IMG/VR virus record: IMGVR_UViG_2869924733_000008
DNA length: 39,122 nucleotides
Reading direction: 5' to 3' (one strand)
Source: a virus
Taxonomy: Duplodnaviria > Heunggongvirae > Uroviricota > Caudoviricetes
A model generated the notes under the pieces. The model did no database searches and was not told the origin of the DNA. It was given only the letters and a program-made list of their open reading frames with translations. The translations under genes and the position numbers were made by a program. Below are positions 10,348 to 39,122 of the stretch, piece after piece (position 1 is the stretch's first letter; every line of letters starts with the position of its first letter).

Positions 10348-11800
10348 TGAGGTAGCCTGAGTTTAACGGACACTCCTTCCTGAAATAGAATGGCATCAGA
10401 AGGAGCTAATAATGAGCAGAAAAACCCAACGTTACTCTAAAGAGTTCAAAGCCGAAGCTGTCAGAACGGTTCTTGAAAATCAACTTTCGATCAGTGAAGG
10501 CGCTTCCCGATTATCCCTTCCTGAAGGCACTTTAGGACAATGGGTTACCGCCGCCAGAAAAGGGCTCGGTACTCCTGGTTCCCGCACGGTGGCTGAACTG
10601 GAATCTGAAATTCTGCAACTGCGTAAGGCGTTAAATGAAGCTCGCCTTGAGCGAGATATATTAAAAAAAGCAACTGTAGATTCAATTGGTCAACGCAACA
10701 GTTATGTGAAAACATGGGGTTGCGGAGGTTTTTTGAATGAGACGAACATTTACAGCAGAGGAAAAAGCCTCTGTTTTTGAACTATGGAAGAACGGAACAG
10801 GCTTCAGTGAAATAGCGAATATCCTGGGTTCAAAACCCGGAACGATCTTCACTATGTTAAGGGATACTGGCGGCATAAAACCCCATGAGCGTAAGCGGGC
10901 TGTAGCTCACCTGACACTGTCTGAGCGCGAGGAGATACGAGCTGGTTTGTCAGCCAAAATGAGCATTCGTGCGATAGCTACTGCGCTGAATCGCAGTCCT
11001 TCGACGATCTCACGTGAAGTTCAGCGTAATCGGGGCAGACGCTATTACAAAGCTGTTGATGCTAATAACCGAGCCAACAGAATGGCGAAAAGGCCAAAAC
11101 CGTGCTTACTGGATCAAAATTTACCATTGCGAAAGCTTGTTCTGGAAAAGCTGGAGATGAAATGGTCTCCAGAGCAAATATCAGGATGGTTAAGGCGAAC
11201 AAAACCACGTCAAAAAACGCTGCGAATATCACCTGAGACAATTTATAAAACGCTGTACTTTCGTAGCCGTGAAGCGCTACACCACCTGAATATACAGCAT
11301 CTGCGACGGTCGCATAGCCTTCGCCATGGCAGGCGTCATACCCGCAAAGGCGAAAGAGGTACGATTAACATAGTGAACGGAACACCAATTCACGAACGTT
11401 CCCGAAATATCGATAACAGACGCTCTCTGGGGCATTGGGAGGGCGATTTAGTCTCAGGTACAAAAAACTCTCATATAGCCACACTTGTAGACCGAAAATC
11501 ACGTTATACGATCATCCTTAGACTCAGGGGCAAAGATTCTGTCTCAGTAAATCAGGCTCTTACCGACAAATTCCTGAGTTTACCGTCAGAACTCAGAAAA
11601 TCACTGACATGGGACAGAGGAATGGAACTGGCCAGACATCTAGAATTTACTGTCAGCACCGGCGTTAAAGTTTACTTCTGCGATCCTCAGAGTCCTTGGC
11701 AGCGGGGAACAAATGAGAACACAAATGGGCTAATTCGGCAGTACTTTCCTAAAAAGACATGTCTTGCCCAATATACTCAACATGAACTAGGCTGTGTCCC

Positions 11801-12316
11801 TTAATTACGTAAGCGTTGATAAAAGAGTCGGATGCAGCCCAGTTTCACCATCGCCAGGTAATTTCTCGCCGTTTTGTCGTAACGCGTGGCGATGCGGCGA
11901 TATTCTTTCAGCCGCCCAAAGCACCGTTCAACGACATTACGATTGCAGTACGCATCACGATCAAGCTGTGCACGTCCATCCGATGCCATTTTCTCATTTG
12001 ACTTTCGGGGGATTACTGCCTTTATACCGTTATTTTTCAGCTCGTTGCGCAATGCGCGCCCTGAATACGCTTTATCAGCCAGTACCGCATGTCCACGGCG
12101 TTTCATGCTGCCGTTCTGACGCTGAACGCCAATCCCGTCCAGAAGTCGTTGCGCGAACTGGCTTTCATGAGCTTGTCCGGGGCTTAGCACGATATTTAAC
12201 GGGAGGCCACTTCCGTCTGTTGCCAGATGGATTTTGGTGCCAAAACCGCCGCGAGAGCGACCCAGCCCATTATCTCCGTCGATATCGGGATGTTTTTTTG
12301 AGCACCGGCGGCACAT
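11801..12316 (-). CDS. IS5-family transposase orfB (DDE region; probably joined to orfA by frameshifting)
   Basis: Overlaps orfA by about 120 nt in another frame; contains DKAYSG, typical of DDE transposases of this group. Confidence 0.5.
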   Translation of the reverse strand: MCRRCSKKHPDIDGDNGLGRSRGGFGTKIHLATDGSGLPLNIVLSPGQAHESQFAQRLLDGIGVQRQNGSMKRRGHAVLADKAYSGRALRNELKNNGIKAVIPRKSNEKMASDGRAQLDRDAYCNRNVVERCFGRLKEYRRIATRYDKTARNYLAMVKLGCIRLFYQRLRN

Positions 12317-12645
12317 TTCAGCGCCCGGATATTACTGCCATCCAGCGCGGTGGCAGACCAGTCAATAAAGCCGTTTGCATCAAGTAGCGAAAGCAACCTG
12401 TTGAAAATAATATTAATCACGCCTGACTTTGACCATCGGTTAAAGCGGTTATAAACAGTTTTCCATGACCCATATCGTTCGGGTAAATCGCGCCATGGTG
12501 CACCGGAACATAACACCCAGAACATGCCATTGATGATTTTACGGTGCTCAGCCCATGGGCGTCCGGCCCGTGGTGTGGCGGGTTCAGGAGGTAACAGGGG
12601 CTTGATGATGGTCCATGCCTCATCGGGAAGGTCGTAGCGAGCCAT
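12196..12645 (-). CDS. IS5-family transposase orfA (149 aa)
   Basis: Contains ..PWRDLPERYGSWKTVYNRFNRWSKSGV.., a motif typical of the N-terminal part of IS5-family (IS427-group) transposases. Confidence 0.6.
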   Translation of the reverse strand: MARYDLPDEAWTIIKPLLPPEPATPRAGRPWAEHRKIINGMFWVLCSGAPWRDLPERYGSWKTVYNRFNRWSKSGVINIIFNRLLSLLDANGFIDWSATALDGSNIRALKCAAGAQKNIPISTEIMGWVALAAVLAPKSIWQQTEVASR

Positions 12646-12890
12646 AGTTCAATATGTTGTGTAAACAGACAGTTACTATAGCTCAGATGATTAAGGGACA
12701 CAGCCTAGATCTGGTTGCTGCTCAGCTAAACAACAGACCGAGAAAGACACTGAAGTTCAAAACACCGAAAGAGATAATTGAAAGGGGTGTTGCATTGACA
12801 GATTGAATCTACAACAGCGTATTTTGCACAGGAGTCGCTGAAAAATACGCGTTAATCGAACAATGGCGACAACAATTTCCCATTGAAGCG

Positions 12891-13709
12891 ATGTGTCAGG
12901 TATTTGGTGTATCCAGGAGCGGTTATTACAACTGGGTACAGCATGAACCCTCAGACAGAAAACAAAGTGATGAGCGGCTAAAACTGGAGATTAAGGTGGC
13001 ACATATCCGCACTCGCGAAACATATGGAACCCGGCGGCTCCAGACGGAGCTGGCAGAGAATGGCATCATCGTTGGTCGTGACCGACTGGCACGTCTTCGT
13101 AAGGAGCTAAGGCTACGCTGTAAGCAGAAACGCAAGTTCAGAGCGACTACGAACCCGAACCACAATCTGCCAGTTGCGCCAAATCTGCTGAACCAGACGT
13201 TCGCTCCTACAGCACCAAATCAGGTCTGGGTGGCGGACCTGACGTATGTTGCCACACAGGAGGGATGGTTGTACCTCGCTGGCATCAAAGATGTTTATAC
13301 GTGCGAAATTGTCGGCTACGCCATGGGAGAGCGCATGACAAAAGAGCTGACAGGTAAAGCCCTGTTTATGGCGCTCAGGAGCCAGCGCCCACCTGCCGGG
13401 CTAATCCACCACTCTGATCGAGGTTCACAGTACTGCGCATACGATTACCGGGTCATACAGGAGCAGTTTGGTCTGAAAACATCAATGTCGCGTAAAGGTA
13501 ACAGTTACGACAACGCTCCGATGGAAAGCTTCTGGGGAACGCTGAAAAATGAGAGCCTGAGCCACTATCGTTTTAATAACCGGGATGAAGCCATCTCAGT
13601 AATACGGGAATACATTGAGATTTTCTACAATCGTCAGCGTCGTCACTCTCGTCTGGGGAATATCTCCCCGGCAGCCTTCAGGGAAAAATATCATCAGATG
13701 GCTGCTTAA
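12891..13709 (+). CDS. IS600 orfB (transposase catalytic part, 272 aa)
   Basis: [25 protein letters not shown]... with DDE-type motifs (..[11 protein letters not shown].., ..[10 protein letters not shown]..); follows orfA of the same element. Confidence 0.8.
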   Translation: MCQVFGVSRSGYYNWVQHEPSDRKQSDERLKLEIKVAHIRTRETYGTRRLQTELAENGIIVGRDRLARLRKELRLRCKQKRKFRATTNPNHNLPVAPNLLNQTFAPTAPNQVWVADLTYVATQEGWLYLAGIKDVYTCEIVGYAMGERMTKELTGKALFMALRSQRPPAGLIHHSDRGSQYCAYDYRVIQEQFGLKTSMSRKGNSYDNAPMESFWGTLKNESLSHYRFNNRDEAISVIREYIEIFYNRQRRHSRLGNISPAAFREKYHQMAA

Positions 13710-13752
13710 AAAAAGAACAAATGGTAGTGTCCGCTATTGCCAGTACACCTCA

Positions 13753-15064
13753 TTGTTAATCTGTTTCTTCTGCGCCTCCGTCAGTGTCACCCCTTCACGG
13801 ATCCCTCCCCAGCGTTTGTACTGCTGGATAACGTCACTCATTGACGCTGCAACCAGCGCCCGCCCTTCATTGTTGTAGGGGATCGTCTGGTTTGACTTGA
13901 ATAACGCGATCACCGCCCCCTGCAAACTGGCATTCAGCCAGATTTGCCCGCAGAAACTGTCCAGCCATTTAAAATCACCGGTAATAGTGCCATCCGCCCA
14001 GTAATCTTCCACCACACTGTTTTCCGCATATTTTCCGTAGAAATTGTAACCTGCGGCGATCAGCGCATCATAATCGCTGCCACTGGTAACATCAGCGGCC
14101 AGCCCCTCATACTCGCGGAACTTGAATGATACACACCCCTCTGGTCGGACAAAATCAAGGCACGCTGCATACCCCAGTACCGCTGCAGCCCGGTTACCAT
14201 CAGTCGCGAAAACAGGTACAACAGAGCTGTAGTTATTGACAGCAATTATCTGGTAAGCGATGTGTTCAGTACTGCCTTTTACTCTGGCGTTGCCGCTGGT
14301 TGTCCATGCCACATAAAAGTAACGCTTGCCCTGCCCGTTTGCCCATGCAGAAAACGCCAGGTGTTGCTCGTCAGTGACCTCAGATACCGTGGAAAAACCC
14401 GCCCATTGCTGGGAAGCGGCCTTAATGGCTGCCATTGTGTCAGGGACATCAGATACAGGCGCGCCCCGGGATATCACCGCACCGGTGTTACTGGTCATCT
14501 TCAGGAGTTCTGTGCCGATCCACTGCCGAACGTTATCGTGGTACTCCCGGGTTTCGCCCCGGCGACAGTAATGACAAAAGCATTCTGTGTGGTATCGAAT
14601 ACCACTGTAGCCACTGCTGCGGTCAGCGCTGTCTGTAGTGCCGTTGCAGCAGCGGCGAAGCTGGCGACACCGTTAAAATTCACTTCAATGCTGACGCTTT
14701 TCCCGTTAATACTCAGCATCAGCGTGCCGGAAAGTTTTTGTAGCTGTTCAACAGTCGCGCCCTTAAACGAACCGCTACGTAACCAGGCCGCCGATGGGGC
14801 AGGACTGAAACGGGAAAACAACAATTGCCCCGGCGTCCTGGTGGCATTTTTGAAGCCCTGGAAATAAAGCTGAGCGCGTGCGTACTCATCGGATAATGCA
14901 CCAAAATACGCGGCCACATCATCCGGAGAGGAAAACGGAACCACAGTGCCGACCGGAAGTAACGGATTACTGGTCAACAGCAGGCCGTTAAGATCGACGG
15001 CATTACCCGCCACAGCCAGCACACCGGGATTTATCTGTACATCTTTACTGAGTGGAATTGGCAT
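13753..15064 (-). pseudogene. Tail sheath protein gene, frameshifted and 3'-truncated by IS600
   Basis: Two ORFs in different frames (14501-15064 and 13734-14498) switch near 14498-14503. The last five codons and the stop of the downstream ORF lie inside IS600. Sheath assignment is by size, position and N-terminal pattern (recall). Confidence 0.5.
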
Positions 15065-15590
15065 TATCAGCCTCCGTTGTCCGGGTGATCACGTTGTCAA
15101 AAAACATCAGGGAAGTTGTGACCACAGGGTTAATCTGCATCTGAATATCAAGCGTCCAGCGCGGTTCATACTGTTGCTGACCGTTGGGGAATGTGGTGTT
15201 AAAGGGCTCTGAGCAATACAGCGGGGAAATCAGCCCACCGCCCTGCCGGAAAAGCCGTACGGAAAATTCAGACCGGAAAAGCGTTGCCAGCACCTGCGCG
15301 TTATCTGCCGCGTGAGGGCCGTAGAAATCAAGCTGGCAACGCCATTTTGTGGTACGGGTGATATGCTGAGAGCCCTCACCAGCCTGCGCTGGCGCAGAAT
15401 ATGCCACTACCGCAGTGGATAATCCGGTAACATCAATGCCCGTCATGGTGATGAAATTCCCCTGAGGCATCGGGACCTGGTTCTGCTGCGTTCGTTCAAT
15501 CCCGGCATCAGAAAAAAGCCCCCGGAGATAATCACCGAGGGCCTGATAAAGAGCGCTTTCCGTAACGGAGAGGGTCACACCTGAAGGCAT
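15045..15590 (-). CDS. Phage structural-module protein, function unknown (neck/tail completion position)
   Basis: 181-aa ORF, tightly packed with overlapping start/stop in the head-tail joining region. Confidence 0.4.
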
Positions 15591-15940
15591 ACAATAACCC
15601 TCGTCCAGTCAGGCCAGATTTCCGGTACCTCAATCACCAGCCACGTTTCATCGCCAATAACAAATTTATCGCCTCCCTGTTGCCGGGCACGGTTAAGCCC
15701 GCACCAGTTACCATCGGTATACAATGTGGCGAAAACTCCCTGCTGGTTAAGATTATCAAGATGACGTAAATCAGCCTGGGTGACAGCCTGCTTTTGCACC
15801 CTGACAGAAACCGGATCTTCATACTCAGGTACGCGGGAATAATCTGCCTGCTGTGTACTCCCGCGGGAACGATAAACCAGCGCGTCTGTAAAGGGATTTA
15901 CCCGACGTACTGCGCCGGAAACAATACCGTGAAAGTTCAT
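15575..15940 (-). CDS. Phage structural-module protein, function unknown
   Basis: 121-aa ORF with ATGA overlap to the upstream gene. Confidence 0.4.
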   Translation of the reverse strand: MNFHGIVSGAVRRVNPFTDALVYRSRGSTQQADYSRVPEYEDPVSVRVQKQAVTQADLRHLDNLNQQGVFATLYTDGNWCGLNRARQQGGDKFVIGDETWLVIEVPEIWPDWTRVIVCLQV

Positions 15941-16521
15941 TTTTTGCCCCCGTCTACAGAATAATCAACGCTGTCCATCATATGTCCGGTTTCAATAAGC
16001 GGGTTGTTAAAACCCTTTTGCCGGGCAGTGGATGCAGCGTTGGGCGGACTTTCCCAGTCGCGAACAGACATCTGCAACTGCCCTTTGATATGTTCTCCCA
16101 TACACACCAGAGCGGTCGCAGTATCAAAATCATTCGCCCGTAATAAGGTCGCCATTTTTTCGCCCCATTCGGGACTTTTATGTTCGATCATCTTACGGAA
16201 GAACGGACGGGGGGGAATGGTGACCGTGTGCTCAGGAATAACCACATCCTGAACAAAATTCCCTTTACCGGCTTTGACAAAGCGGTGCCCGGTTTCTCCC
16301 GTTTTTTCGTTATAGCGAAAGTGGAGCGTCTGCTCACGGGCGGGTATGACCGCTCTTCCACCAAACTCCTGAACTGCGGCAATATAAGCCACTGACGTAC
16401 CGTCAGGGTAAGTTGCTCCCTCAAGAAAACCCACTTTGAGTTTTTTACCCAATGAAAGGTTCGCGGCAACCTGTTTCAGCTTCTGCCGGAACTGTTTGCC
16501 ACCTGTGACTTTATTTACCAT
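15937..16521 (-). CDS. Head-tail connector protein (HK97 gp10-like, tentative)
   Basis: Probable start is the internal ATG at 16521 ([11 protein letters not shown]...); the longer ORF to 16791 would overlap the upstream gene. Family call is from weak recalled similarity. Confidence 0.4.
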
Positions 16522-16969
16522 CGACGCCCCTCCCGTATCCCCGGTAATAATGCCCCGGATATCGCGAAGGTGACCCCCCGGAATGATACTGCATTGAGCG
16601 GTATGGCGCTGTCGCCTGCCAGTAGTCAGCACCCCAGGGGGTCTGGAGATACCACCACGACGCATCATTACTGCCGCTATTATCCACCGATACCGATACA
16701 GAACCTTCCGACGCACTGGTGATACGCCCCACCAGACCAGCCTGCCCGTCTCTCCCGTTTCCCAGCCCCCGCAATGCGCACAGATGCGCAACCAGCAGGA
16801 ACAGAAGCTGTTCCCGCTCCTTCAGGTCGGTAACCGGACTGTCGTCCGTGTTATCCTGGTACAACGCGGTCGCCTGGTTAAACACCGCCGTCAGTAGCTC
16901 CGGTGTCACCGTGGAAAACTCCGGGTACAGACTGACAAACATCCGACAGTCAAACATCACCGTACCCAT
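16511..16969 (-). CDS. Head completion/connector protein (DUF4054-like)
   Basis: 152-aa ORF in the conserved slot after the capsid gene; N-terminal ..[14 protein letters not shown].. pattern (recall). Confidence 0.4.
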
Positions 16970-16974
16970 AGCGT

Positions 16975-17322
16975 TTACTCCTGAGGTTTACCCATCACTT
17001 CATCATTGCGGTTAACGCCCGGAGCCGGATTTTTCTGCGGCAGCGGTTCAAGGCCGGATTTAACGGCTTTCTGCTCCGTAGCCTGCGAGACTGCACTGTT
17101 CGCCTTATCCTGCGCAAAAATAACGCCATTTTTCACATAAGGTTGCTGTCCGTGCTCCGCCAGCCAGGCGTCAAAAAACACCTTATCGACCTGCGTCAGA
17201 CCATAGCCCCCCACAATTTTAACCGCGTTATTCCGCCAGCCTGTCACCTGAACCCGTTTCTGCCCCACTTCCAGCACCAGACCGTTCGGCAGTTTACAGC
17301 CCACTGTTACCATTTCAGCCAT
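16975..17322 (-). CDS. Small phage head-associated protein, function unknown
   Basis: 115-aa ORF between the capsid and connector genes. Confidence 0.35.
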
Positions 17323-17325
17323 AAC

Positions 17326-18354
17326 TCACACCCCAAGCATTTGTGCATACGCCAGCGGCTGGCGAATAATCGCCCCCCAGGTACCAGCGGATTTTTTCTG
17401 TTTCCAGGAAGACGTATCTACCCCTACCGCATGGGCGCGCATTTTTTCAGTGAAAGCGCAATAGCCTGTATCCTGTTCACCCAGACGCTCCGCGATAAGC
17501 TGTACCAGCTCGCCAGCGTCAGAGGTGTATTCCACCGCCGTTTCAATGGTCATCGCCGGGAAATTTTTCGCCAGCAGATCGGACACGTTAACCCTGTACT
17601 GGTTTGTTTTGGTGAGGTTCACCTCTGCCAGCGGCGACATGCACAGTTTCATTTTGTCGGTACGCTCAATATGACCGTTAGTCTGTTTCACCAGTTGCTT
17701 AAAGAGTTTCACGATATCGTCATACACGCCCTGTCCGTCCTTGTCGTCCCACTTCAGTTTACCGTCAACGGTATCCGGGGTGATTGGTGCAGATAACGAC
17801 GGATCATTCAGCAAACCGTAGTTCGTCAGTCCGGCAATACCGTAGAAATAGGACTTATTCTGGAACTTATTCAGCGTCAGTGCTGACGCCACGTTCAGCT
17901 CTGCCGCCCAGCCAATACGGGCTGCGCCGTACATCTCCAGCTCACGTTCGCCCCATACGGTGAAGGTCTGGAAGTGATAGCTCTGGCGCGGTACCCAGTT
18001 GACGTTTGCGCTTACCACCCCGTTGTTGCTGTAATCCCCGTAGGAACTCACCTCCCCGTCAGATTCTGCAATCGGGAATTGTGCCGACAGTGTCGTCCAG
18101 TCACCTTTTTTGGTTTCGCCCAGAATCTGAGCGGCTTTCATCGGCGTCACCAGCACGCGGATCAGTTCTGGCTCAACGTAATTGGTGAAATACGCAGGGA
18201 TACCGCTGTTAGCCGCTGTGACCAGCGCAGGCTGCGCGTCCATCGCCAGTCCGTAATCGGCGGCGTACTCCTTCGGCAAATAAGCCTGTGCTCCGGGAAG
18301 AATAATCCCGTAGTCGCGACTTGCCGTCGCATAATGCTGTTTAAATTTATTCAT
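17326..18354 (-). CDS. Major capsid protein (putative)
   Basis: 342-aa ORF in the canonical position downstream of the portal/scaffold genes; size and composition fit a major capsid protein. Confidence 0.5.
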
Positions 18355-18836
18355 TATTTGCTCCAGGTACTGATCTTAATGACTTCTTTTGCCGCCGCAG
18401 CGCTGGCAACGGAAAACCAGGTTTCGACAAACCCCGCCATCGAGGTGCCAGCCGCCCCCGTGGCTATCTCCCCGGTGGCCAGTGAGGCAAATACTTTCTG
18501 CCCGATCGTCGCAGTAGTGGTGGTCAGCGCCCAGAAATCCCCCGACACCATCAGGGTGCATTCACGCCCCGGATAAATGGTGTTCGAGTCCCCGGCCAGC
18601 CATTCCACAATGGAAGCCTGCCCGTCACGAGGAACAAAACCCGCCGGTGCGCCGGCCCCCTTATTAGCGGCAACACCTTTGGTTACCCAGGCAAACCGGG
18701 CAATTACCAGCCCGTCAGGGCCGGTAATCAGCCCGCCATCTCCCGCCACATACGAGGCATGAGGGTTAGCACTGGCAAACGCCCCCGGAATACCCGGTGC
18801 CGGGTACTGGTTCATGTGTGTCTGAAAAGTATTCAT
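18354..18836 (-). CDS. Head structural/decoration-type protein (putative)
   Basis: 160 aa, Gly/Ala-rich, directly upstream of the capsid gene with a 1-nt overlap. Confidence 0.35.
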
Positions 18837-18837
18837 A

Positions 18838-23754: not shown

Positions 23755-24283
23755 TGAGGTGTACTGGCAATAGCGGACACTACCATTTGTTCTTTTTTTA
23801 AGCAGCCATCTGATGATATTTTTCCCTGAAGGCTGCCGGGGAGATATTCCCCAGACGAGAGTGACGACGCTGACGATTGTAGAAAATCTCAATGTATTCC
23901 CGTATTACTGAGATGGCTTCATCCCGGTTATTAAAACGATAGTGGCTCAGGCTCTCATTTTTCAGCGTTCCCCAGAAGCTTTCCATCGGAGCGTTGTCGT
24001 AACTGTTACCTTTACGCGACATTGATGTTTTCAGACCAAACTGCTCCTGTATGACCCGGTAATCGTATGCGCAGTACTGTGAACCTCGATCAGAGTGGTG
24101 GATTAGCCCGGCAGGTGGGCGCTGGCTCCTGAGCGCCATAAACAGGGCTTTACCTGTCAGCTCTTTTGTCATGCGCTCTCCCATGGCGTAGCTAGACTGG
24201 CCCCCTGAATCTCCAGACAACCAGTATCACTTAAATAAGTGATAGTCTTAATACTAGTTTTTAGACTAGTCATTGGAGTACAG

Positions 24284-24649
24284 ATGATTGATGTCTTAGG
24301 GCCGGAGAAACGCAGACGGCGTACCACACAGGAAAAGATCGCAATTGTTCAGCAGAGCTTTGAACCGGGGATGACGGTCTCCCTCGTTGCCCGGCAACAT
24401 GGTGTAGCAGCCAGCCAGTTATTTCTCTGGCGTAAGCAATACCAGGAAGGAAGTCTTACTGCTGTGGCCGCCGGAGAACAGGTTGTTCCTGCCTCTGAAC
24501 TTGCTGCCGCCATGAAGCAGATTAAAGAACTCCAGCGCCTGCTCGGCAAGAAAACGATGGAAAATGAACTCCTCAAAGAAGCCGTTGAATATGGACGGGC
24601 AAAAAAGTGGATAGCGCACGCGCCCTTATTGCCCGGGGATGGGGAGTAA
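24284..24649 (+). CDS. insC: IS2 InsC (orfA, 121 aa)
   Basis: [47 protein letters not shown]... matches recalled IS2 InsC. Confidence 0.9.
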
Positions 24650-25512
24650 GCTTAGTCAGCCGTTGTCTCCGGGTGTCGCGTGCGCAGTTGCACGTCATTC
24701 TCAGACGAACCGATGACTGGATGGATGGCCGCCGCAGTCGTCACACTGATGATACGGATGTGCTTCTCCGTATACACCATGTTATCGGAGAGCTGCCCAC
24801 GTATGGTTATCGTCGGGTATGGGCGCTGCTTCGCAGACAGGCAGAACTTGATGGTATGCCTGCGATCAATGCCAAACGTGTTTACCGGATCATGCGCCAG
24901 AATGCGCTGTTGCTTGAGCGAAAACCTGCTGTACCGCCATCGAAACGGGCACATACAGGCAGAGTGGCCGTGAAAGAAAGCAATCAGCGATGGTGCTCTG
25001 ACGGGTTCGAGTTCTGCTGTGATAACGGAGAGAGACTGCGTGTCACGTTCGCGCTGGACTGCTGTGATCGTGAGGCACTGCACTGGGCGGTGACTACCGG
25101 CGGCTTCAACAGTGAAACAGTACAGGACGTCATGCTGGGAGCGGTGGAACGCCGCTTCGGCAACGATCTTCCGTCGTCTCCAGTGGAGTGGCTGACGGAT
25201 AATGGTTCATGCTACCGGGCTAATGAAACACGCCAGTTCGCCCGGATGTTGGGACTTGAACCGAAGAACACGGCGGTGCGGAGTCCGGAGAGTAACGGAA
25301 TAGCAGAGAGCTTCGTGAAAACGATAAAGCGTGACTACATCAGTATCATGCCCAAACCAGACGGGTTAACGGCAGCAAAGAACCTTGCAGAGGCGTTCGA
25401 GCATTATAACGAATGGCATCCGCATAGTGCGCTGGGTTATCGCTCGCCACGGGAATATCTGCGGCAGCGGGCTTGTAATGGGTTAAGTGATAACAGATGT
25501 CTGGAAATATAG
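24607..25512 (+). CDS. insD: IS2 InsD (orfB, 301 aa)
   Basis: [41 protein letters not shown]... matches recalled IS2 InsD. Confidence 0.9.
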
Positions 25513-26029
25513 GGGCAAATCCAGTAGCCGACAATTTCGCACGTATAAACATCTTTGATGCCAGCGAAGTACAACCATCCCTCCTGTGTGGCAACATACG
25601 TCAGGTCCGCCACCCAGACCTGATTTGGTGCTGTAGGAGCGAACGTCTGGTTCAGCAGATTTGGCGCAACTGGCAGATTGTGGTTCGGGTTCGTAGTCGC
25701 TCTGAACTTGCGTTTCTGCTTACAGCGTAGCCTTAGCTCCTTACGAAGACGTGCCAGTCGGTCACGACCAACGATGATGCCATTCTCTGCCAGCTCCGTC
25801 TGGAGCCGCCGGGTTCCATATGTTTCGCGAGTGCGGATATGTGCCACCTTAATCTCCAGTTTTAGCCGCTCATCACTTTGTTTTCTGTCTGAGGGTTCAT
25901 GCTGTACCCAGTTGTAATAACCGCTCCTGGATACACCAAATACCTGACACATCGCTTCAATGGGAAATTGTTGTCGCCATTGTTCGATTAACGCGTATTT
26001 TTCAGCGACTCCTGTGCAAAATACGCTGT

Positions 26030-27250
26030 TGTAGATTCAATCTGTCAATGCAACACCCCTTTCAATTATCTCTTTCGGTGTTTTGAACTTCAGTGTCTTT
26101 CTCGGTCTGTTGTTTAGCTGAGCAGCAACCAGATCTAGTTCATGTTGAGTATATTGGGCAAGACATGTCTTTTTAGGAAAGTACTGCCGAATTAGCCCAT
26201 TTGTGTTCTCATTTGTTCCCCGCTGCCAAGGACTCTGAGGATCGCAGAAGTAAACTTTAACGCCGGTGCTGACAGTAAATTCTAGATGTCTGGCCAGTTC
26301 CATTCCTCTGTCCCATGTCAGTGATTTTCTGAGTTCTGACGGTAAACTCAGGAATTTGTCGGTAAGAGCCTGATTTACTGAGACAGAATCTTTGCCCCTG
26401 AGTCTAAGGATGATCGTATAACGTGATTTTCGGTCTACAAGTGTGGCTATATGAGAGTTTTTTGTACCTGAGACTAAATCGCCCTCCCAATGCCCCAGAG
26501 AGCGTCTGTTATCGATATTTCGGGAACGTTCGTGAATTGGTGTTCCGTTCACTATGTTAATCGTACCTCTTTCGCCTTTGCGGGTATGACGCCTGCCATG
26601 GCGAAGGCTATGCGACCGTCGCAGATGCTGTATATTCAGGTGGTGTAGCGCTTCACGGCTACGAAAGTACAGCGTTTTATAAATTGTCTCAGGTGATATT
26701 CGCAGCGTTTTTTGACGTGGTTTTGTTCGCCTTAACCATCCTGATATTTGCTCTGGAGACCATTTCATCTCCAGCTTTTCCAGAACAAGCTTTCGCAATG
26801 GTAAATTTTGATCCAGTAAGCACGGTTTTGGCCTTTTCGCCATTCTGTTGGCTCGGTTATTAGCATCAACAGCTTTGTAATAGCGTCTGCCCCGATTACG
26901 CTGAACTTCACGTGAGATCGTCGAAGGACTGCGATTCAGCGCAGTAGCTATCGCACGAATGCTCATTTTGGCTGACAAACCAGCTCGTATCTCCTCGCGC
27001 TCAGACAGTGTCAGGTGAGCTACAGCCCGCTTACGCTCATGGGGTTTTATGCCGCCAGTATCCCTTAACATAGTGAAGATCGTTCCGGGTTTTGAACCCA
27101 GGATATTCGCTATTTCACTGAAGCCTGTTCCGTTCTTCCATAGTTCAAAAACAGAGGCTTTTTCCTCTGCTGTAAATGTTCGTCTCATTCAAAAAACCTC
27201 CGCAACCCCATGTTTTCACATAACTGTTGCGTTGACCAATTGAATCTACA
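26030..27250 (-). mobile_element. IS30 (1221 bp) inside IS600 copy 2
   Basis: IS30 terminal repeats at both ends; 2-bp duplication (GT on the plus strand) at 26028-29 and 27251-52. Confidence 0.9.
26037..27188 (-). CDS. insI: IS30 transposase (383 aa)
   Basis: [38 protein letters not shown]... full length, identical to the other intact copies. Confidence 0.95.
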   Translation of the reverse strand: MRRTFTAEEKASVFELWKNGTGFSEIANILGSKPGTIFTMLRDTGGIKPHERKRAVAHLTLSEREEIRAGLSAKMSIRAIATALNRSPSTISREVQRNRGRRYYKAVDANNRANRMAKRPKPCLLDQNLPLRKLVLEKLEMKWSPEQISGWLRRTKPRQKTLRISPETIYKTLYFRSREALHHLNIQHLRRSHSLRHGRRHTRKGERGTINIVNGTPIHERSRNIDNRRSLGHWEGDLVSGTKNSHIATLVDRKSRYTIILRLRGKDSVSVNQALTDKFLSLPSELRKSLTWDRGMELARHLEFTVSTGVKVYFCDPQSPWQRGTNENTNGLIRQYFPKKTCLAQYTQHELDLVAAQLNNRPRKTLKFKTPKEIIERGVALTD

Positions 27251-27952
27251 GTTGCTTTTTTTAATATATCTCGCTCAAGGCGAGCTTCATTTAACGCCTT
27301 ACGCAGTTGCAGAATTTCAGATTCCAGTTCAGCCACCGTGCGGGAACCAGGAGTACCGAGCCCTTTTCTGGCGGCGGTAACCCATTGTCCTAAAGTGCCT
27401 TCAGGAAGGGATAATCGGGAAGCGCCTTCACTGATCGAAAATTGATTTTCAAGAACCGTTCTGACAGCTTCGGCTTTGAACTCTTTAGAGTAACGTTGGG
27501 TTTTTCTGCTCATTATTAGCTCCTTCTGATGCCATTCTATTTCAGGAAGGAGTGTCCGTTAAACTCAGGCTACCTCAGGTCTTCCGACGATTCTGTCATT
27601 GTTCATTAAGCAAAAGTTTCCATGCTGTTTGTGCTTATTCTAAGCAACCGGGCAGCATCATACGGGGCAATTATGGCCGCATTACCATACATGCAACTGT
27701 ACATAGCTAATTACCTGGCTGACACCATGCATTTGTCAGCAGAGGAGCACGGCGCGTATTTGTTGCTGATGTTCAATTACTGGCAAACAGGAAAGCCAAT
27801 ACCCAAAAACAGGTTGGCAAAAATTGCCCGTCTGACTAACGAGCGATGGGTTGATGTTGAACCATCCTTGCGGGAGTTTTTTTGTGATAACGGCGACGAA
27901 TGGATGCATCTTCGGATTGAGGAAGATCTGGCATCTGTCAGTGGATTTGCCC

Positions 27953-28858
27953 CTATATTTCCAGACATCTGTTATCACTTAACCCATTACAAGCCCGCTG
28001 CCGCAGATATTCCCGTGGCGAGCGATAACCCAGCGCACTATGCGGATGCCATTCGTTATAATGCTCGAACGCCTCTGCAAGGTTCTTTGCTGCCGTTAAC
28101 CCGTCTGGTTTGGGCATGATACTGATGTAGTCACGCTTTATCGTTTTCACGAAGCTCTCTGCTATTCCGTTACTCTCCGGACTCCGCACCGCCGTGTTCT
28201 TCGGTTCAAGTCCCAACATCCGGGCGAACTGGCGTGTTTCATTAGCCCGGTAGCATGAACCATTATCCGTCAGCCACTCCACTGGAGACGACGGAAGATC
28301 GTTGCCGAAGCGGCGTTCCACCGCTCCCAGCATGACGTCCTGTACTGTTTCACTGTTGAAGCCGCCGGTAGTCACCGCCCAGTGCAGTGCCTCACGATCA
28401 CAGCAGTCCAGCGCGAACGTGACACGCAGTCTCTCTCCGTTATCACAGCAGAACTCGAACCCGTCAGAGCACCATCGCTGATTGCTTTCTTTCACGGCCA
28501 CTCTGCCTGTATGTGCCCGTTTCGATGGCGGTACAGCAGGTTTTCGCTCAAGCAACAGCGCATTCTGGCGCATGATCCGGTAAACACGTTTGGCATTAAT
28601 CGCAGGCATACCATCAAGTTCTGCCTGTCTGCGAAGCAGCGCCCATACCCGACGATAACCATACGTGGGCAGCTCTCCGATAACATGGTGTATACGGAGA
28701 AGCACATCCGTATCATCAGTGTGACGACTGCGGCGGCCATCCATCCAGTCATCGGTTCGTCTGAGAATGACGTGCAACTGCGCACGCGACACCCGGAGAC
28801 AACGGCTGACTAAGCTTACTCCCCATCCCCGGGCAATAAGGGCGCGTGCGCTATCCAC
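27953..28858 (-). CDS. insD: IS2 InsD (orfB, 301 aa)
   Basis: Same protein as 24607-25512, apart from one substitution. Confidence 0.9.
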
Positions 28859-29181
28859 TTTTTTGCCCGTCCATATTCAACGGCTTCTTTGAGGAGTTCA
28901 TTTTCCATCGTTTTCTTGCCGAGCAGGCGCTGGAGTTCTTTAATCTGCTTCATGGCGGCAGTAAGTTCAGAGGCAGGAACAACCTGTTCTCCGGCGGCCA
29001 CAGCAGTAAGACTTCCTTCCTGGTATTGCTTACGCCAGAGAAATAACTGGCTGGCTGCTACACCATGTTGCCGGGCAACGAGGGAGACCGTCATCCCCGG
29101 TTCAAAGCTCTGCTGAACAATTGCGATCTTTTCCTGTGTGGTACGCCGTCTGCGTTTCTCCGGCCCTAAGACATCAATCAT
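28816..29181 (-). CDS. insC: IS2 InsC (orfA, 121 aa), cut off from the IS2 left end by IS630
   Basis: [13 protein letters not shown]...; the longer ORF to 29238 is read-through from the IS630 end. Confidence 0.85.
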
Positions 29182-29198
29182 CTGTACTCCAATGACTA

Positions 29199-30351
29199 AA
29201 TAGCTGCGCTTAATACCGCTACACTTTTGCCAGTCCATGTTTGCCTCCGGGGAATGGGCTGACGGTTTCCATAAAATGGCGAACTTTTTTCAACAGTTGC
29301 CACATTGAGCGGCACTGATGATTACGCGTTATTGTGTCGTGAAGTGCCTGCCATAGCCGTTCAACATGATTCACCCATGGCGAGTAAACCGGCTGATAAA
29401 TGACCCTGAACTTCGGGTTCTCCTTCAGCCAGCTCTGTGTTTCCCGGCTTTTGTGGATAATGTAGTTGTCCACGATCAGCGTGATGGTTTTCGCCCGACG
29501 GTATGTCGCTTTAAGCCGCTTCAGCAGGCTGATGAACAGCGCCGAACTTTTGCTGTTGCCGCCCACATAGCTGACTTTACCTGTCCCGCTGTGCAGCGCT
29601 CCGGCCAGATAATATTTTTCATTCTGTCCCGGCGTGACCACCCGTTTTTGCTGTCCGCGCAGTTGCCAGTCCGCACCGATTTTGGGATAAAGATGGATAT
29701 CCACTTCATCTTCATAAAAGACCGGATGCTCTGCGCTGCATTCGTCCAGTGCTTTATGGATTGCTGCCATCTTTTCATCTTTATGCGGGTCACGGATACG
29801 CAGAGTTGGCGCAGCCCTTCGCCACACAATCCCCGCAGACGGCAACCAGCGGCGAACGGTTCCGGCATTTAACTGGCAACCGGTTATCTCATTGATTTTT
29901 ATTGCCAGCAGTTCTGTACTCCAGCGTGAACGCTGGTAGACAAAGTCGCCGGGAGAATGTTTTACCAGCTCACGTAACAGTGTGCAGATATGCTCAAACG
30001 GCCAGCGACGGGCACGCCCGGCAGGTAATGATTTCAGTCCCTCAACACCCGACTGCGTGAACCAGTTAATCCAGCGTCCAACAGAGGAACGGGCGCAGCA
30101 GAGCGTTCTGGCAACGTCGCTGACACGGTCGCCCCGGTGCAGCATCAGCATGGCAGTCAGTCTGCGGGCATAATTTTTATCGTGTGTTTTATGGATGGCT
30201 TTCTGCATCAGGCGTCGTTCGTCACGGGAAATTGGTGCTATGATCGGCATTGCTCAGTCCGGTTGGTGATTTGTTTTGATTTGGCGATTGATCAGATCGC
30301 ACAATCCGGGCTAAGTTCCCTCAAAGTGATCTACTATTCCGCGCAGCTATT
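29199..30351 (-). mobile_element. IS630 (1153 bp) inserted in the IS2 left-end region
   Basis: Terminal repeats AATAGCTGCGC.../...GCGCAGCTATT; TA duplication inside the IS2 sequence ..AGACTAGTC.. (CTAG target). Confidence 0.85.
29219..30250 (-). CDS. IS630 transposase (Tc1/mariner superfamily, 343 aa)
   Basis: [31 protein letters not shown]... matches recalled IS630 transposase; size is exact. Confidence 0.85.
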
Positions 30352-30536
30352 TAGTCTAAAAACTAGTATTAAGACTATCACTTATTTAAGTGATACTGGT
30401 TGTCTGGAGATTCAGGGGGCCAGTCTAGTCAGAGAAAAATTAACCAAAAAATCAGCCGCAGGAAAAGCATCTGTTCAGGCCAGAAGAAGCAGAAAGGAAG
30501 CAGATGTTCAAACAAAACAAGAGAGAAATTTAACAG

Positions 30537-31289: not shown

Positions 31290-31295
31290 CAGACC

Positions 31296-32042
31296 ATGAA
31301 AAATATTGCGACAGGAGGCGTTCTGGAGCGTATCCGCAGACTGACCCCACCACATGTAACCGCCCCATTCAGAACGGTTGCGGAGTGGCGCGAGTGGCAA
31401 CTTGCTGAAGGCCAGAAACGTTGCGAGGAGATCAACCGCCTGAATCGTCAGTTGCGGGTGGAAAAAATCCTGAACCGCTCCGGCATCCAGCCGTTGCACC
31501 GGAAGTGTTCGTTTGCGAATTACCGGGCGCAGAACGACGGTCAGCGACATGCACTGAGTCAGGCGAAATCCATAGCTGACGAACTGATGACAGGCTGTAC
31601 GAATTTTGTGTTCAGCGGTAAGCCCGGCACCGGAAAAAATCATCTTGCAGCCGCGATTGGCAACCGGCTGATGGCGAAGGGGCGTAGCGTGATTATCGTC
31701 ACCGTGTCCGATGTCATGAGCGTGTTGCATGAGAGCTACGACAACGGCAAATCCGGTGAAAAATTTTTACAGGAGCTTTGTGGTGTTGACCTGCTGGTCC
31801 TGGATGAAATTGGCATGCAGCGGGATACGAAAAACGAGCAGGTGGTACTGAACCAGATTGTTGATCGCCGGACGGCATCGTTACGCGGTGTGGGGATGCT
31901 GACAAATATTAACCATGCAGCGATGAATACACTTCTCGGCGAGCGGGTGATGGATCGCATGGTCATGAACGGCGGGCGCTGGGTGAATTTTAACTGGGAG
32001 AGCTGGCGTCCGAATGTTAGCCATTCGAGGGTTGTTAAGTAG
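31296..32042 (+). CDS. DnaC-like helicase loader (IstB-type AAA+ ATPase)
   Basis: Walker A GKPGTGKNHLAAAIG and Walker B LLVLDEIG; 248 aa; typical replication-module partner of the DnaT/YdaU-like gene. Confidence 0.85.
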   Translation: MKNIATGGVLERIRRLTPPHVTAPFRTVAEWREWQLAEGQKRCEEINRLNRQLRVEKILNRSGIQPLHRKCSFANYRAQNDGQRHALSQAKSIADELMTGCTNFVFSGKPGTGKNHLAAAIGNRLMAKGRSVIIVTVSDVMSVLHESYDNGKSGEKFLQELCGVDLLVLDEIGMQRDTKNEQVVLNQIVDRRTASLRGVGMLTNINHAAMNTLLGERVMDRMVMNGGRWVNFNWESWRPNVSHSRVVK

Positions 32043-32056
32043 TTTCAGGAGGATTT

Positions 32057-32158
32057 ATGGCGAAACCTTTTACTCCCGAACAGCGGGAAGAACTGAAGAC
32101 GCGAATTGTGGAACTCGTGCATCAGGACGGTCGGGTCACGATTCGGCAGTTGTCAGAT
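32057..32158 (+). pseudogene. Small phage gene truncated after 34 codons by the IS911 end
   Basis: MAKPFTPEQREELKTRIVELVHQDGRVTIRQLSD, then a TGA supplied by the first bases of the IS911 inverted repeat. Confidence 0.4.
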
Positions 32159-32166
32159 TGAAGTGG

Positions 32167-34295
<2,129 letters not shown>

Positions 34296-34527
34296 GTAGC
34301 CTTTTTTAATATTTCATTCTCCATTTCAATGCGTTGTAGCTTTTTCCTCAGCTTACGTATTTCGATTTGTTCTGGTGTTATCGGAGAGGCTTTTGGTGTT
34401 TTGCCCTGACGCTCATCACGCAGTTGTTTGACCCATCTTGTCATTGTGGAAAGGCCAACATCCATAGCTTTGGCGGCATCTGCCTGAGGTGTACTGGCAA
34501 TAGCGGACACTACCATTTGTTCTTTTT

Positions 34528-35346
34528 TTAAGCAGCCATCTGATGATATTTTTCCTTGAAGGCTGCCGGGGAGATATTCCCCAGACGAGAGTGACGACGC
34601 TGACGATTGTAGAAAATCTCAATGTATTCCCGTATTACTGAGATGGCTTCATCCCGGTTATTAAAACGATAGTGGCTCAGGCTCTCATTTTTCAGCGTTC
34701 CCCAGAAGCTTTCCATCGGAGCGTTGTCGTAACAGTTACCTTTACGCGACATTGATGTTTTCAGACCAAACTGCTCCTGTATGACCCGGTAATCGTATGC
34801 GCAGTACTGTGAACCTCGATCAGAGTGGTGGATTAGCCCGGCAGGTGGGCGCTGGCTCCTGAGCGCCATAAACAGGGCTTTACCTGTCAGCTCTTTTGTC
34901 ATGCGCTCTCCCATGGCGTAGCCGACAATTTCGCACGTATAAACATCTTTGATGCCAGCGAGGTACAACCATCCCTCCTGTGTGGCAACATACGTCAGGT
35001 CCGCCACCCAGACCTGATTTGGTGCTGTAGGAGCGAACGTCTGGTTCAGCAGATTTGGCGCAACTGGCAGATTGTGGTTCGGGTTCGTAGTCGCTCTGAA
35101 CTTGCGTTTCTGCTTACAGCGTAGCCTTAGCTCCTTACGAAGACGTGCCAGTCGGTCACGACCAACGATGATGCCATTCTCTGCCAGCTCCGTCTGGAGC
35201 CGCCGGGTTCCATATGTTTCGCGAGTGCGGATATGTGCCACCTTAATCTCCAGTTTTAGCCGCTCATCACTTTGTTTTCTGTCTGAGGGTTCATGCTGTA
35301 CCCAGTTGTAATAACCGCCCCTGGATACACCAAATACCTGACACAT
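34528..35346 (-). CDS. IS600 orfB (272 aa)
   Basis: Same protein as 12891-13709 with three substitutions (S10G, S/C, R/K). Confidence 0.8.
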
Positions 35347-35423
35347 CGCTTCAATGGGAAATTGTTGTCGCCATTGTTCGATTAACGCGTATTTTTCAGC
35401 GACTCCTGTGCAAAATACGCTGT

Positions 35424-36644
35424 TGTAGATTCAATTGGTCAACGCAACAGTTATGTGAAAACATGGGGTTGCGGAGGTTTTTTGAATGAGACGAACATTT
35501 ACAGCAGAGGAAAAAGCCTCTGTTTTTGAACTATGGAAGAACGGAACAGGCTTCAGTGAAATAGCGAATATCCTGGGTTCAAAACCCGGAACGATCTTCA
35601 CTATGTTAAGGGATACTGGCGGCATAAAACCCCATGAGCGTAAGCGGGCTGTAGCTCACCTGACACTGTCTGAGCGCGAGGAGATACGAGCTGGTTTGTC
35701 AGCCAAAATGAGCATTCGTGCGATAGCTACTGCGCTGAATCGCAGTCCTTCGACGATCTCACGTGAAGTTCAGCGTAATCGGGGCAGACGCTATTACAAA
35801 GCTGTTGATGCTAATAACCGAGCCAACAGAATGGCGAAAAGGCCAAAACCGTGCTTACTGGATCAAAATTTACCATTGCGAAAGCTTGTTCTGGAAAAGC
35901 TGGAGATGAAATGGTCTCCAGAGCAAATATCAGGATGGTTAAGGCGAACAAAACCACGTCAAAAAACGCTGCGAATATCACCTGAGACAATTTATAAAAC
36001 GCTGTACTTTCGTAGCCGTGAAGCGCTACACCACCTGAATATACAGCATCTGCGACGGTCGCATAGCCTTCGCCATGGCAGGCGTCATACCCGCAAAGGC
36101 GAAAGAGGTACGATTAACATAGTGAACGGAACACCAATTCACGAACGTTCCCGAAATATCGATAACAGACGCTCTCTGGGGCATTGGGAGGGCGATTTAG
36201 TCTCAGGTACAAAAAACTCTCATATAGCCACACTTGTAGACCGAAAATCACGTTATACGATCATCCTTAGACTCAGGGGCAAAGATTCTGTCTCAGTAAA
36301 TCAGGCTCTTACCGACAAATTCCTGAGTTTACCGTCAGAACTCAGAAAATCACTGACATGGGACAGAGGAATGGAACTGGCCAGACATCTAGAATTTACT
36401 GTCAGCACCGGCGTTAAAGTTTACTTCTGCGATCCTCAGAGTCCTTGGCAGCGGGGAACAAATGAGAACACAAATGGGCTAATTCGGCAGTACTTTCCTA
36501 AAAAGACATGTCTTGCCCAATATACTCAACATGAACTAGATCTGGTTGCTGCTCAGCTAAACAACAGACCGAGAAAGACACTGAAGTTCAAAACACCGAA
36601 AGAGATAATTGAAAGGGGTGTTGCATTGACAGATTGAATCTACA
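35424..36644 (+). mobile_element. IS30 (1221 bp) inside IS600 copy 3, opposite orientation to its host element
   Basis: IS30 terminal repeats; 2-bp duplication at 35422-23 and 36645-46. Confidence 0.9.
35486..36637 (+). CDS. insI: IS30 transposase (383 aa)
   Basis: Full-length, identical protein to the other intact copies. Confidence 0.95.
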   Translation: MRRTFTAEEKASVFELWKNGTGFSEIANILGSKPGTIFTMLRDTGGIKPHERKRAVAHLTLSEREEIRAGLSAKMSIRAIATALNRSPSTISREVQRNRGRRYYKAVDANNRANRMAKRPKPCLLDQNLPLRKLVLEKLEMKWSPEQISGWLRRTKPRQKTLRISPETIYKTLYFRSREALHHLNIQHLRRSHSLRHGRRHTRKGERGTINIVNGTPIHERSRNIDNRRSLGHWEGDLVSGTKNSHIATLVDRKSRYTIILRLRGKDSVSVNQALTDKFLSLPSELRKSLTWDRGMELARHLEFTVSTGVKVYFCDPQSPWQRGTNENTNGLIRQYFPKKTCLAQYTQHELDLVAAQLNNRPRKTLKFKTPKEIIERGVALTD

Positions 36645-37169
36645 GTTGCTTTTTTTAATATATCTCGCTCAAGGCGAGCTTCATTTAACGCCTTACGCAG
36701 TTGCAGAATTTCAGATTCCAGTTCAGCCACCGTGCGGGAACCAGGAGTACCGAGCCCTTTTCTGGCGGCGGTAACCCATTGTCCTAAAGTGCCTTCAGGA
36801 AGGGATAATCGGGAAGCGCCTTCACTGATCGAAAATTGATTTTCAAGAACCGTTCTGACAGCTTCGGCTTTGAACTCTTTAGAGTAACGTTGGGTTTTTC
36901 TGCTCATTATTAGCTCCTTCTGATGCCATTCTATTTCAGGAAGGAGTGTCCGTTAAACTCAGGCTACCTCAGCCACCGTGTATTTCTGGTCAACAACCAG
37001 TTGAGCGGATTCGCGTTTAAACTCTGCGCTAAAATTTCTTTTTTTCATTGGAGCACCTGTGTTGTTCTGAGGTGAGCATATCACCTCTGTTCAGGTGGCC
37101 AAATTCAGTGTGCCACTTCATATCTTAAACTACCGGAATGAACTGCTGCATGGAGAAACGCTTTACCTA

Positions 37170-38322
37170 AATAGCTGCGCGGAATAGTAGATCACTTTGA
37201 GGGAACTTAGCCCGGATTGTGCGATCTGATCAATCGCCAAATCAAAACAAATCACCAACCGGACTGAGCAATGCCGATCATAGCACCAATTTCCCGTGAC
37301 GAACGACGCCTGATGCAGAAAGCCATCCATAAAACACACGATAAAAATTATGCCCGCAGACTGACTGCCATGCTGATGCTGCACCGGGGCGACCGTGTCA
37401 GCGACGTTGCCAGAACGCTCTGCTGCGCCCGTTCCTCTGTTGGACGCTGGATTAACTGGTTCACGCAGTCGGGTGTTGAGGGACTGAAATCATTACCTGC
37501 CGGGCGTGCCCGTCGCTGGCCGTTTGAGCATATCTGCACACTGTTACGTGAGCTGGTAAAACATTCTCCCGGCGACTTTGTCTACCAGCGTTCACGCTGG
37601 AGTACAGAACTGCTGGCAATAAAAATCAATGAGATAACCGGTTGCCAGTTAAATGCCGGAACCGTTCGCCGCTGGTTGCCGTCTGCGGGGATTGTGTGGC
37701 GAAGGGCTGCGCCAACTCTGCGTATCCGTGACCCGCATAAAGATGAAAAGATGGCAGCAATCCATAAAGCACTGGACGAATGCAGCGCAGAGCATCCGGT
37801 CTTTTATGAAGATGAAGTGGATATCCATCTTCATCCCAAAATCGGTGCGGACTGGCAACTGCGCGGACAGCAAAAACGGGTGGTCACGCCGGGACAGAAT
37901 GAAAAATATTATCTGGCCGGAGCGCTGCACAGCGGGACAGGTAAAGTCAGCTATGTGGGCGGCAACAGCAAAAGTTCGGCGCTGTTCATCAGCCTGCTGA
38001 AGCGGCTTAAAGCGACATACCGTCGGGCGAAAACCATCACGCTGATCGTGGACAACTACATTATCCACAAAAGCCGGGAAACACAGAGCTGGCTGAAGGA
38101 GAACCCGAAGTTCAGGGTCATTTATCAGCCGGTTTACTCGCCATGGGTGAATCATGTTGAACGGCTATGGCAGGCACTTCACGACACAATAACGCGTAAT
38201 CATCAGTGCCGCTCAATGTGGCAACTGTTGAAAAAAGTTCGCCATTTTATGGAAACCGTCAGCCCATTCCCCGGAGGCAAACATGGACTGGCAAAAGTGT
38301 AGCGGTATTAAGCGCAGCTATT
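37170..38322 (+). mobile_element. IS630 (1153 bp) inserted in the integrase gene
   Basis: Same terminal repeats as the other copy; TA duplication (37168-69 and 38323-24) within ..ACCTAGAT.. (CTAG target). Confidence 0.85.
37271..38302 (+). CDS. IS630 transposase (343 aa)
   Basis: Identical to 29219-30250 except one residue (H/Y). Confidence 0.85.
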   Translation: MPIIAPISRDERRLMQKAIHKTHDKNYARRLTAMLMLHRGDRVSDVARTLCCARSSVGRWINWFTQSGVEGLKSLPAGRARRWPFEHICTLLRELVKHSPGDFVYQRSRWSTELLAIKINEITGCQLNAGTVRRWLPSAGIVWRRAAPTLRIRDPHKDEKMAAIHKALDECSAEHPVFYEDEVDIHLHPKIGADWQLRGQQKRVVTPGQNEKYYLAGALHSGTGKVSYVGGNSKSSALFISLLKRLKATYRRAKTITLIVDNYIIHKSRETQSWLKENPKFRVIYQPVYSPWVNHVERLWQALHDTITRNHQCRSMWQLLKKVRHFMETVSPFPGGKHGLAKV

Positions 38323-39122
38323 TAGATAATCCAAGATCCAACAAAAAAGGAAGAACCGTGCGCACAGTTGATAACTATATCGCCCTGCTCTGTTCGTTGT
38401 TACGTTTTGCGTATCAGTCGGGATTTATATCAACCAAACCATTTGAAGGAGTAAAAAAATTACAGCGAAACAGAATAAAGCCTGACCCGTTATCTAAAAC
38501 AGAATTCAATGCATTAATGGAAAGTGAAAAAGGACAGAGCCAAAACTTGTGGAAATTTGCCGTTTACTCCGGGCTTCGTCACGGGGAACTGGCAGCTCTG
38601 GCGTGGGAGGATGTGGATTTCGAGAAGGGAATTGTGAATGTCAGAAGAAACCTGACGATACTTGATATGTTCGGTCCCCCAAAAACAAATGCCGGGATCC
38701 GGACGGTAACATTACTGCAGCCGGCTCTTGAAGCACTGAAGGAGCAATACAAACTGACCGGGCATCATCGCAAAAGCGAAATCACTTTTTATCATCGGGA
38801 GTACGGCAGAACTGAAAAGCAAAAACTGCATTTTGTTTTCATGCCCAGGGTGTGTAACGAAAAACAGAAACCTTATTACTCGGTAAGCAGTTTGGGTGCA
38901 AGATGGAATGCAGCAGTAAAACGTGCTGGTATTCGCCGCCGTAATCCGTACCATACGCGACATACTTTTGCCTGCTGGCTGTTGACGGCAGGAGCGAACC
39001 CGGCATTTATAGCCAGCCAGATGGGGCATGAAACTGCGCAAATGGTGTATGAAATTTACGGTATGTGGATTGATGACATGAACGACGAACAGATAGCCAT
39101 GTTGAATGCGCGGTTATCGTAG

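Follow-up and report, generated by a model that had tools for sequence, protein, structure and literature searches.

IS630 and ISSfl7 insertions at CTAG tetranucleotides in a Rac-site prophage rich in insertion sequences

IS5 proper is 1195 bp long, has GG termini, and duplicates 4 bp of a YTAR target. The IS427-group elements, which belong to the same IS5 family of insertion sequences (ISs), have 2-bp duplications and two frameshifted open reading frames (ORFs) (PMC3281130, Table 2). IS630 of Shigella sonnei, a member of the IS630/Tc1/mariner superfamily, prefers the TA within 5'-CTAG-3' (Tenzen 1990; Tenzen & Ohtsubo 1991, as cited in passages of PMC2170065 and PMC6811581), and a published parallel, an IS630 in fliC at 5'-CTAG-3', was explained by this specificity (PMC6811581). 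We analysed a 39,122-nt stretch of DNA (IMG/VR record IMGVR_UViG_2869924733_000008; hereafter the window) that carries two copies of IS630 and one copy of ISSfl7, each inserted into a CTAG. The IS630 copies show no substantive difference from the known element, with which they share the length of 1153 bp, the inverted repeats, the 343-aa DDE_3 transposase, and the use of TA in CTAG; their hosts, the leader of an IS2 and the integrase gene intR, are further examples of IS630 targets. ISSfl7 is like the IS427 group (e.g., IS1248 and ISPpa2) in size (916 bp, against 800-1000 bp for the group), in its two overlapping ORFs with an A7 run, in its 2-bp duplication, and in its GG...CC ends; the YTAR consensus with over-use of CTAG that we give for it beside that group was derived here, from 16 sites. 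With IS5 proper it shares the family, a central TA, a YTAR-type target, and GG termini, but it is shorter, duplicates 2 bp rather than 4 bp, and has a two-ORF transposase with a predicted frameshift.

We conclude, with a probability of roughly 0.93, that the window records three separate target-site-specific transpositions in a degraded prophage at the Rac site, saturated with ISs, of an Escherichia that is like Shigella or enteroinvasive Escherichia coli (EIEC). IS630, as a Tc1/mariner-type DDE transposon, would cut and join at the central TA of 5'-CTAG-3', duplicating the TA; it inserted once into the IS2 leader and once into intR. ISSfl7 inserts at the TA of YTAR sites, favouring CTAG, with one event in the transposase gene of an IS30. 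For both elements, this chemistry is proposed from what is known of their families. The targets of the three events differ. IS630 copies 1 and 2 have the same sequence (100% identity), and the match between them spans C-TA...TA-G over 1159 nt. We found no evidence that contradicts the three-event explanation.

Both IS630 insertions have an exact unoccupied counterpart (coordinates of all features are in the table). The junctions of copy 1, within IS2 copy B, read GAC-TA-[IS630]-TA-GTC, and the intact IS2 copy A has the uninterrupted sequence GACTAGTC (24266-24269); an independent repeat search found that the similarity between the two IS2 copies is interrupted exactly at the occupied CTAG. This CTAG occupies IS2 positions 74-77, within the leader and immediately upstream of the orfA start codon, and the insertion between leader and ATG probably abolished expression and inactivated this IS2. 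Copy 2 has the junctions TTTACC-TA-[IS630]-TA-GATAATCC, and its target is ACCTAGAT within intR. Removal of the element and one TA leaves 496 nt with a single CTAG, and this reconstruction is found at full length and 100% identity in five E. coli genomes and with at least 80% query coverage in 1862 genomes; in the annotated counterpart of the window in strain CFSAN029787 (L001), the corresponding CTAG falls within the intR coding sequence. The IS630 termini are inverted repeats (AATAGCTGCGC.../...GCGCAGCTATT), the transposase matches Pfam DDE_3 (4.8e-24) together with HTH_23, HTH_32, and HTH_29, and copy 1 is 99.6% identical to an IS630 named by the Prokaryotic Genome Annotation Pipeline (PGAP). 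Independent IS630 sites in IMG/VR contigs follow the same rule: of 35 unique upstream flanks, 33 are CTA, and the downstream flanks are TAG in all 17 cases. Insertion turns CTAG into CTAA and TTAG, and the original site is thereby lost.

The third element is 99.8-99.9% identical to sequences that PGAP names 'IS5-like element ISSfl7 family transposase'. Its ORFs match Pfam DUF4096 (1.5e-30) and DDE_Tnp_1 (2e-21), both score above the cutoff for NCBIfam transpos_IS5_3, and their overlap contains an A7 slippery run from which frameshifting is predicted. ISSfl7 is an IS5-family element with IS427-group features. Its junctions in IS30 copy a are AAC-TA-[GGCTGTG...CACAGCC]-TA-GATC, and the three intact IS30 copies of the window each have a single AACTAGATC at the corresponding place. 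ISSfl7 entered the CTAG that lies at IS30 position 1113-1116, in the 3' part of the transposase gene; the insertion shortens the transposase of copy a from 383 to 355 aa (ORF 10737-11804), and loss of the C-terminus probably inactivated this IS30.

Because CTAG is palindromic, one ISSfl7 copy is compatible both with a 914-bp element flanked by a 4-bp duplication and with a 916-bp element flanked by a 2-bp duplication. Additional copies were therefore compared, with 15 to 18 flanks collected from IMG/VR contigs. The unique upstream flanks are CTA (n = 10) and TTA (n = 8), and the downstream flanks are TAG (n = 9), TAA (n = 5), and TAC (n = 1). If 4-bp boundaries are drawn, the upstream 4-mer is YTAG with an invariant final G (18/18), the downstream 4-mer is CTAR or CTAC with an invariant initial C (15/15), the outer base of each is variable, and the two 4-mers are mostly unlike (Fisher P = 0.004). 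For four of these copies, other loci contain an exact 38-nt empty site that holds a single TA; the copies are those at CTAA (L014), TTAG (L026), CTAG (L046), and TTAA (L048). With the window copy there are five exact pairs of empty and occupied sites, all of which indicate a 2-bp TA duplication. Given the single-TA empty sites and the invariant inner G and C of other copies, ISSfl7 duplicates TA only, within YTAR, and the G and C are its own terminal bases. The apparent CTAG...CTAG around the window copy arises because these terminal bases restore CTAG at both junctions. The first-pass annotation had correctly recognised three insertions, all into CTAG, and the TA duplications of both IS630 copies, and each of the three places has an exact unoccupied site; its further statement that the IS5-family element duplicates a whole CTAG is wrong, as the empty sites of the CTAA, TTAG, and TTAA targets hold a single TA.

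The 16 ISSfl7 target sites comprise five CTAG, eight CTAA/TTAG, two TTAA, and one CTAC. Of the YTAR sites available in the window, only 7% are CTAG, and its five occurrences among 16 targets thus represent over-use (P = 0.004). The CTAGs now present at the ISSfl7 junctions lie at 11787-11790 and 12705-12708; by the same arrangement, a YTAR target of any kind is converted into YTAG and CTAR. No IS630 adjoining an ISSfl7 end, as would be expected from use of a regenerated CTAG, was seen among approximately 35 sites. A scan of genome contigs gave no match to the left end of ISSfl7, in a set where one E. coli representative probably stands for Shigella as well.

Table. Positions of the insertions, their hosts, and other insertion sequences in the window.
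Feature	Position	Strand	Details
ISSfl7	11790-12705	-	916 bp; termini GGCTGTGTCCCTTAAT / ATTAAGGGACACAGCC; overlapping ORFs 12645-12196 and 12316-11801
Duplicated TA, left of ISSfl7	11788-11789		outer C of target CTAG at 11787
Duplicated TA, right of ISSfl7	12706-12707		outer G of target CTAG at 12708
Unoccupied reference CTAG, IS30 copy b	26135-26138		in intact IS30
Unoccupied reference CTAG, IS30 copy c	33180-33183		in intact IS30
Unoccupied reference CTAG, IS30 copy d	36536-36539		in intact IS30
IS630 copy 1	29199-30351	-	1153 bp; 343-aa transposase, ORF 30250-29219; duplicated TA 29197-29198 and 30352-30353
IS630 copy 2	37170-38322	+	1153 bp; duplicated TA 37168-37169 and 38323-38324
IS30 copy a	10675-12813	+	host of ISSfl7; inverted repeats located
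IS30 copies b, c, d	26030-27250, 33075-34295, 35424-36644		intact; repeat and inverted-repeat searches
IS2 copy A	24193-25523		intact
IS2 copy B	27942-30427	-	host of IS630 copy 1; own 5-bp duplication GTCAG
intR remnant (Rac-prophage integrase)	37118-39122	+	host of IS630 copy 2; Pfam Phage_integrase
IS600, three copies	10348-13752, 23755-27577, 34485-36971		1264 bp; PGAP name; every copy with IS30 inside
IS911/ISEc52-like element, three pieces	32160-33074, 34298-34484, 36975-37117		
IS110-family element	3849-5301		398-aa transposase; NCBIfam 'IS110 family RNA-guided transposase', 7e-71
IS66 fragment	9410-10347		

CTAG is the joint rarest tetranucleotide in the window, which contains 15 copies as it stands. 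With the three elements removed computationally, the pre-insertion window has 16 CTAGs among 1599 TA dinucleotides, which gives a probability of 0.01 that a random TA insertion falls into CTAG and of ~1e-6 that three do. The E. coli genome has 885 copies (~0.19 per kb), a rarity ascribed to very-short-patch repair, and recently acquired DNA is richer in CTAG (PMC5337935). The DNA of the window outside ISs has two copies in 20.9 kb (0.096 per kb), so the rarity of CTAG that had been assumed for enterobacterial DNA holds here as well.

The supply is uneven. Fourteen of the 16 pre-insertion CTAGs are in or at IS2 and IS30 copies: each of the four IS30 copies and each of the two IS2 copies, elements of ~1.2-1.3 kb, contains two, and two more arise at IS2 junctions, where the terminal TAG of IS2 meets a flanking C. 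Such junction CTAGs at the IS2 left terminus were seen in all three IS2 copies examined (24192-24195, 30425-30428, and 32269 in L001); the flanking C may be a coincidence or a target preference of IS2. The CTAG density of IS2 and IS30 is ~8 times the genomic density, and the enrichment in these two elements is significant (P = 0.0016). Taken as a class, the IS DNA of the window is not significantly rich in CTAG (four in 9.5 kb, P = 0.11), and CTAG is absent from seven of its nine IS types. Since the IS2 and IS30 copies hold most CTAGs, two of three hits within ISs are what CTAG specificity leads one to expect (probability of at least two of three, 0.96), and amplified copies of these two elements dominate the target supply and make an extra attraction to ISs unnecessary. 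The suggestion that ISs serve as targets for each other therefore applies to IS2 and IS30, through their share of the CTAGs and the recurrence described below, and fails as a general statement for the IS types that lack CTAG. An enrichment of insertions at CTAG, for which a check had been proposed in both families, is seen in the IS630 flanks and in the ISSfl7 targets, which also include other YTAR sites. The three hits follow known target rules and are no independent demonstration of IS-on-IS targeting.

The same sites are occupied in other genomes. In E. coli FDAARGOS_943, the IS2 leader CTAG (position 74-77) holds an IS630 in the same orientation (L055, 3059-4211); this IS630 is 99.6% identical to that of the window, and its IS2 host only 95%. 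In the pig isolate E. coli ZH142, the leader CTAG of a truncated IS2 relative holds ISEc33, a different member of the IS630 family (L056, 3059-4211), again in the same orientation and with 88.6% identity to IS630. The insertions into the IS2 leader are recurrent and independent. A prophage CTAG, ACTGGATGC-TA-GTGAGAGCA, holds IS630 in L026 (minus strand, 5995-7147) and ISSfl7 in L046 (minus strand, 3232-4147), in an identical 598-nt context; we found no uninterrupted or annotated counterpart of this context in the E. coli set. Two unrelated transposase families thus compete for one scarce site. FDAARGOS_943 (NZ_CP065615.1, labelled E. coli) has ISSfl7 in 32 places, one of them in csgA, and many IS630 and IS2 copies, an IS load that resembles that of Shigella or EIEC. 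The IS2 of CFSAN029787 was considered as a possible orthologue of IS2 copy B, which would have supplied an orthologous copy free of IS630; the two are not orthologous, since they differ in their flanks and in their 5-bp duplication.

Nesting of ISs in the window extends beyond CTAG. There are seven IS-in-IS events, of which only the insertions of ISSfl7 into IS30 and of IS630 into IS2 are at CTAG; the others are IS30 into IS600 (twice), IS30 into an IS911-like element, IS600 into an IS911-like element (duplication GCC), and IS2 into IS600 (duplication GTAGC). Between 32160 and 37117, the IS911/ISEc52-like element is split by an IS30 and by an IS600 that itself bears an IS30, which results in three nesting levels. 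IS30 copies a, b, and d occupy one exact IS600 position, in both orientations and with an equal 2-bp duplication, and copy c is at the homologous position of the IS911-like element. This spot is directly 3' of the A6G/A7G programmed-frameshift motif of the IS3 family (ATTAAAAAAAGCAAC/ACAGCG and ATTAAAAAAGGCTAC/ACCGCG, with the slash at the insertion spot), and the two types of IS600::IS30 junction have full-length matches in 1284 and 626 E. coli genomes. Judged from these sequences, the frameshift window of IS3-family elements appears to contain a hot spot that IS30 hits repeatedly. An inversion between adjacent inverted IS30 copies was considered as the origin of the opposite IS30 orientation in the third IS600 and rejected, because, with such an inversion undone, neither copy would keep its matching 2-bp duplication.

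Other explanations of the three insertions differ in how well they accommodate these observations. ISSfl7 could act like IS5 itself, as a 914-bp element at 11791-12704 with a 4-bp CTAG duplication; the literal sequence CTAG-GCTG...CAGC-CTAG reads this way, and 4-bp YTAR duplications are typical of IS5 proper. The constant inner G and C, the varying outer bases, and the usually unlike 4-mers go against it, the single-TA empty sites at CTAA, TTAG, and TTAA, in which no 4-mer is duplicated, refute it, and we regard it as very improbable. It is scarcely credible that random TA insertion struck CTAG three times by luck: the sample is only three, yet the chance of such a series is about one in a million, and both IS630 and ISSfl7 obey the same rule at independent sites. 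Nested structures could also have arrived pre-formed, with IS2::IS630 and IS30::ISSfl7 brought in by transposition or recombination. IS600::IS30 does occur three times in the window, two of these composites being 100% identical, and IS2::IS630 recurs at the same site in FDAARGOS_943. There, however, the IS2 host is more diverged from the window copy than the IS630 that it carries, the IS30::ISSfl7 junction has no match in 5426 E. coli genomes, and the original event would still be an insertion into CTAG; we consider an arrival of this kind unlikely.

It is conceivable, though in our view doubtful, that ISs are preferred landing pads, either through active targeting or through the neutrality of dead IS copies, with CTAG being secondary. 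The number of nested events away from CTAG, the 47% share of IS DNA in the window, and the repeated use by IS30 of one IS600 spot and its IS911-like homologue, with widespread junction types, fit such a preference. The CTAG/YTAR rule nevertheless holds equally outside ISs, in intR and at nearly all IMG/VR sites, and with most CTAGs already located in IS copies an added preference is superfluous. Three target-site-specific transpositions remain the explanation that we favour, within some limits. Selection after insertion may also contribute, insertions in dead IS copies being neutral, and this is inseparable from target supply. The sites used for comparison lie in contigs derived from prophages, and recombination has shuffled some of their flanks, which leaves the four exact empty sites unaffected; the assignment of ISSfl7 to the IS427 group is based on features.

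The window was identified as a Rac-site prophage by megablast against E. coli genomes and by its annotated counterpart in CFSAN029787. Tail, head, and terminase genes are present, together with ydaU/ydaV and intR. ISs have invaded the prophage heavily and deleted parts of it; we mapped them from repeats within the window, from searches for inverted repeats, and from family scans. Upstream of IS630 copy 2, intR is truncated by the IS911-like element, whose end lies at 37117. IS600 copies one and two have no matching 3-bp target duplications (CAG and TTG at 10348/13752, GAG and GGT at 23755/27577), and their flanks are unrelated on the two sides (IS66 fragment and phage genes), which indicates that IS600 mediated deletions or rearrangements in the prophage. 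The IS110-family element is located among phage tail genes and is absent from the CFSAN029787 counterpart.

The essentials of these insertions were already known, as the specificity of IS630 was published in 1990-91, and no new mechanism is involved; the only additions are the corrected boundary and duplication of ISSfl7 (TA in place of CTAG) and the competition of two unrelated families for one scarce site. The exact boundaries and duplications of the three nested insertions are useful for ordering events in IS-riddled regions, with little consequence beyond annotation. They also show why CTAG-specific elements in Shigella-like genomes often sit in IS2 and IS30, which combine a high CTAG density with many copies. 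A broader proposal, which we consider rather speculative and on balance improbable, is that CTAG-bearing IS2 and IS30 copies are important sinks for the IS630 family and ISSfl7 and are systematically silenced by them in Shigella-like genomes, and that the CTAGs regenerated by ISSfl7 seed further nesting. If true, this would amount to a small ecology of insertion sequences that compete for, and create, a scarce target.

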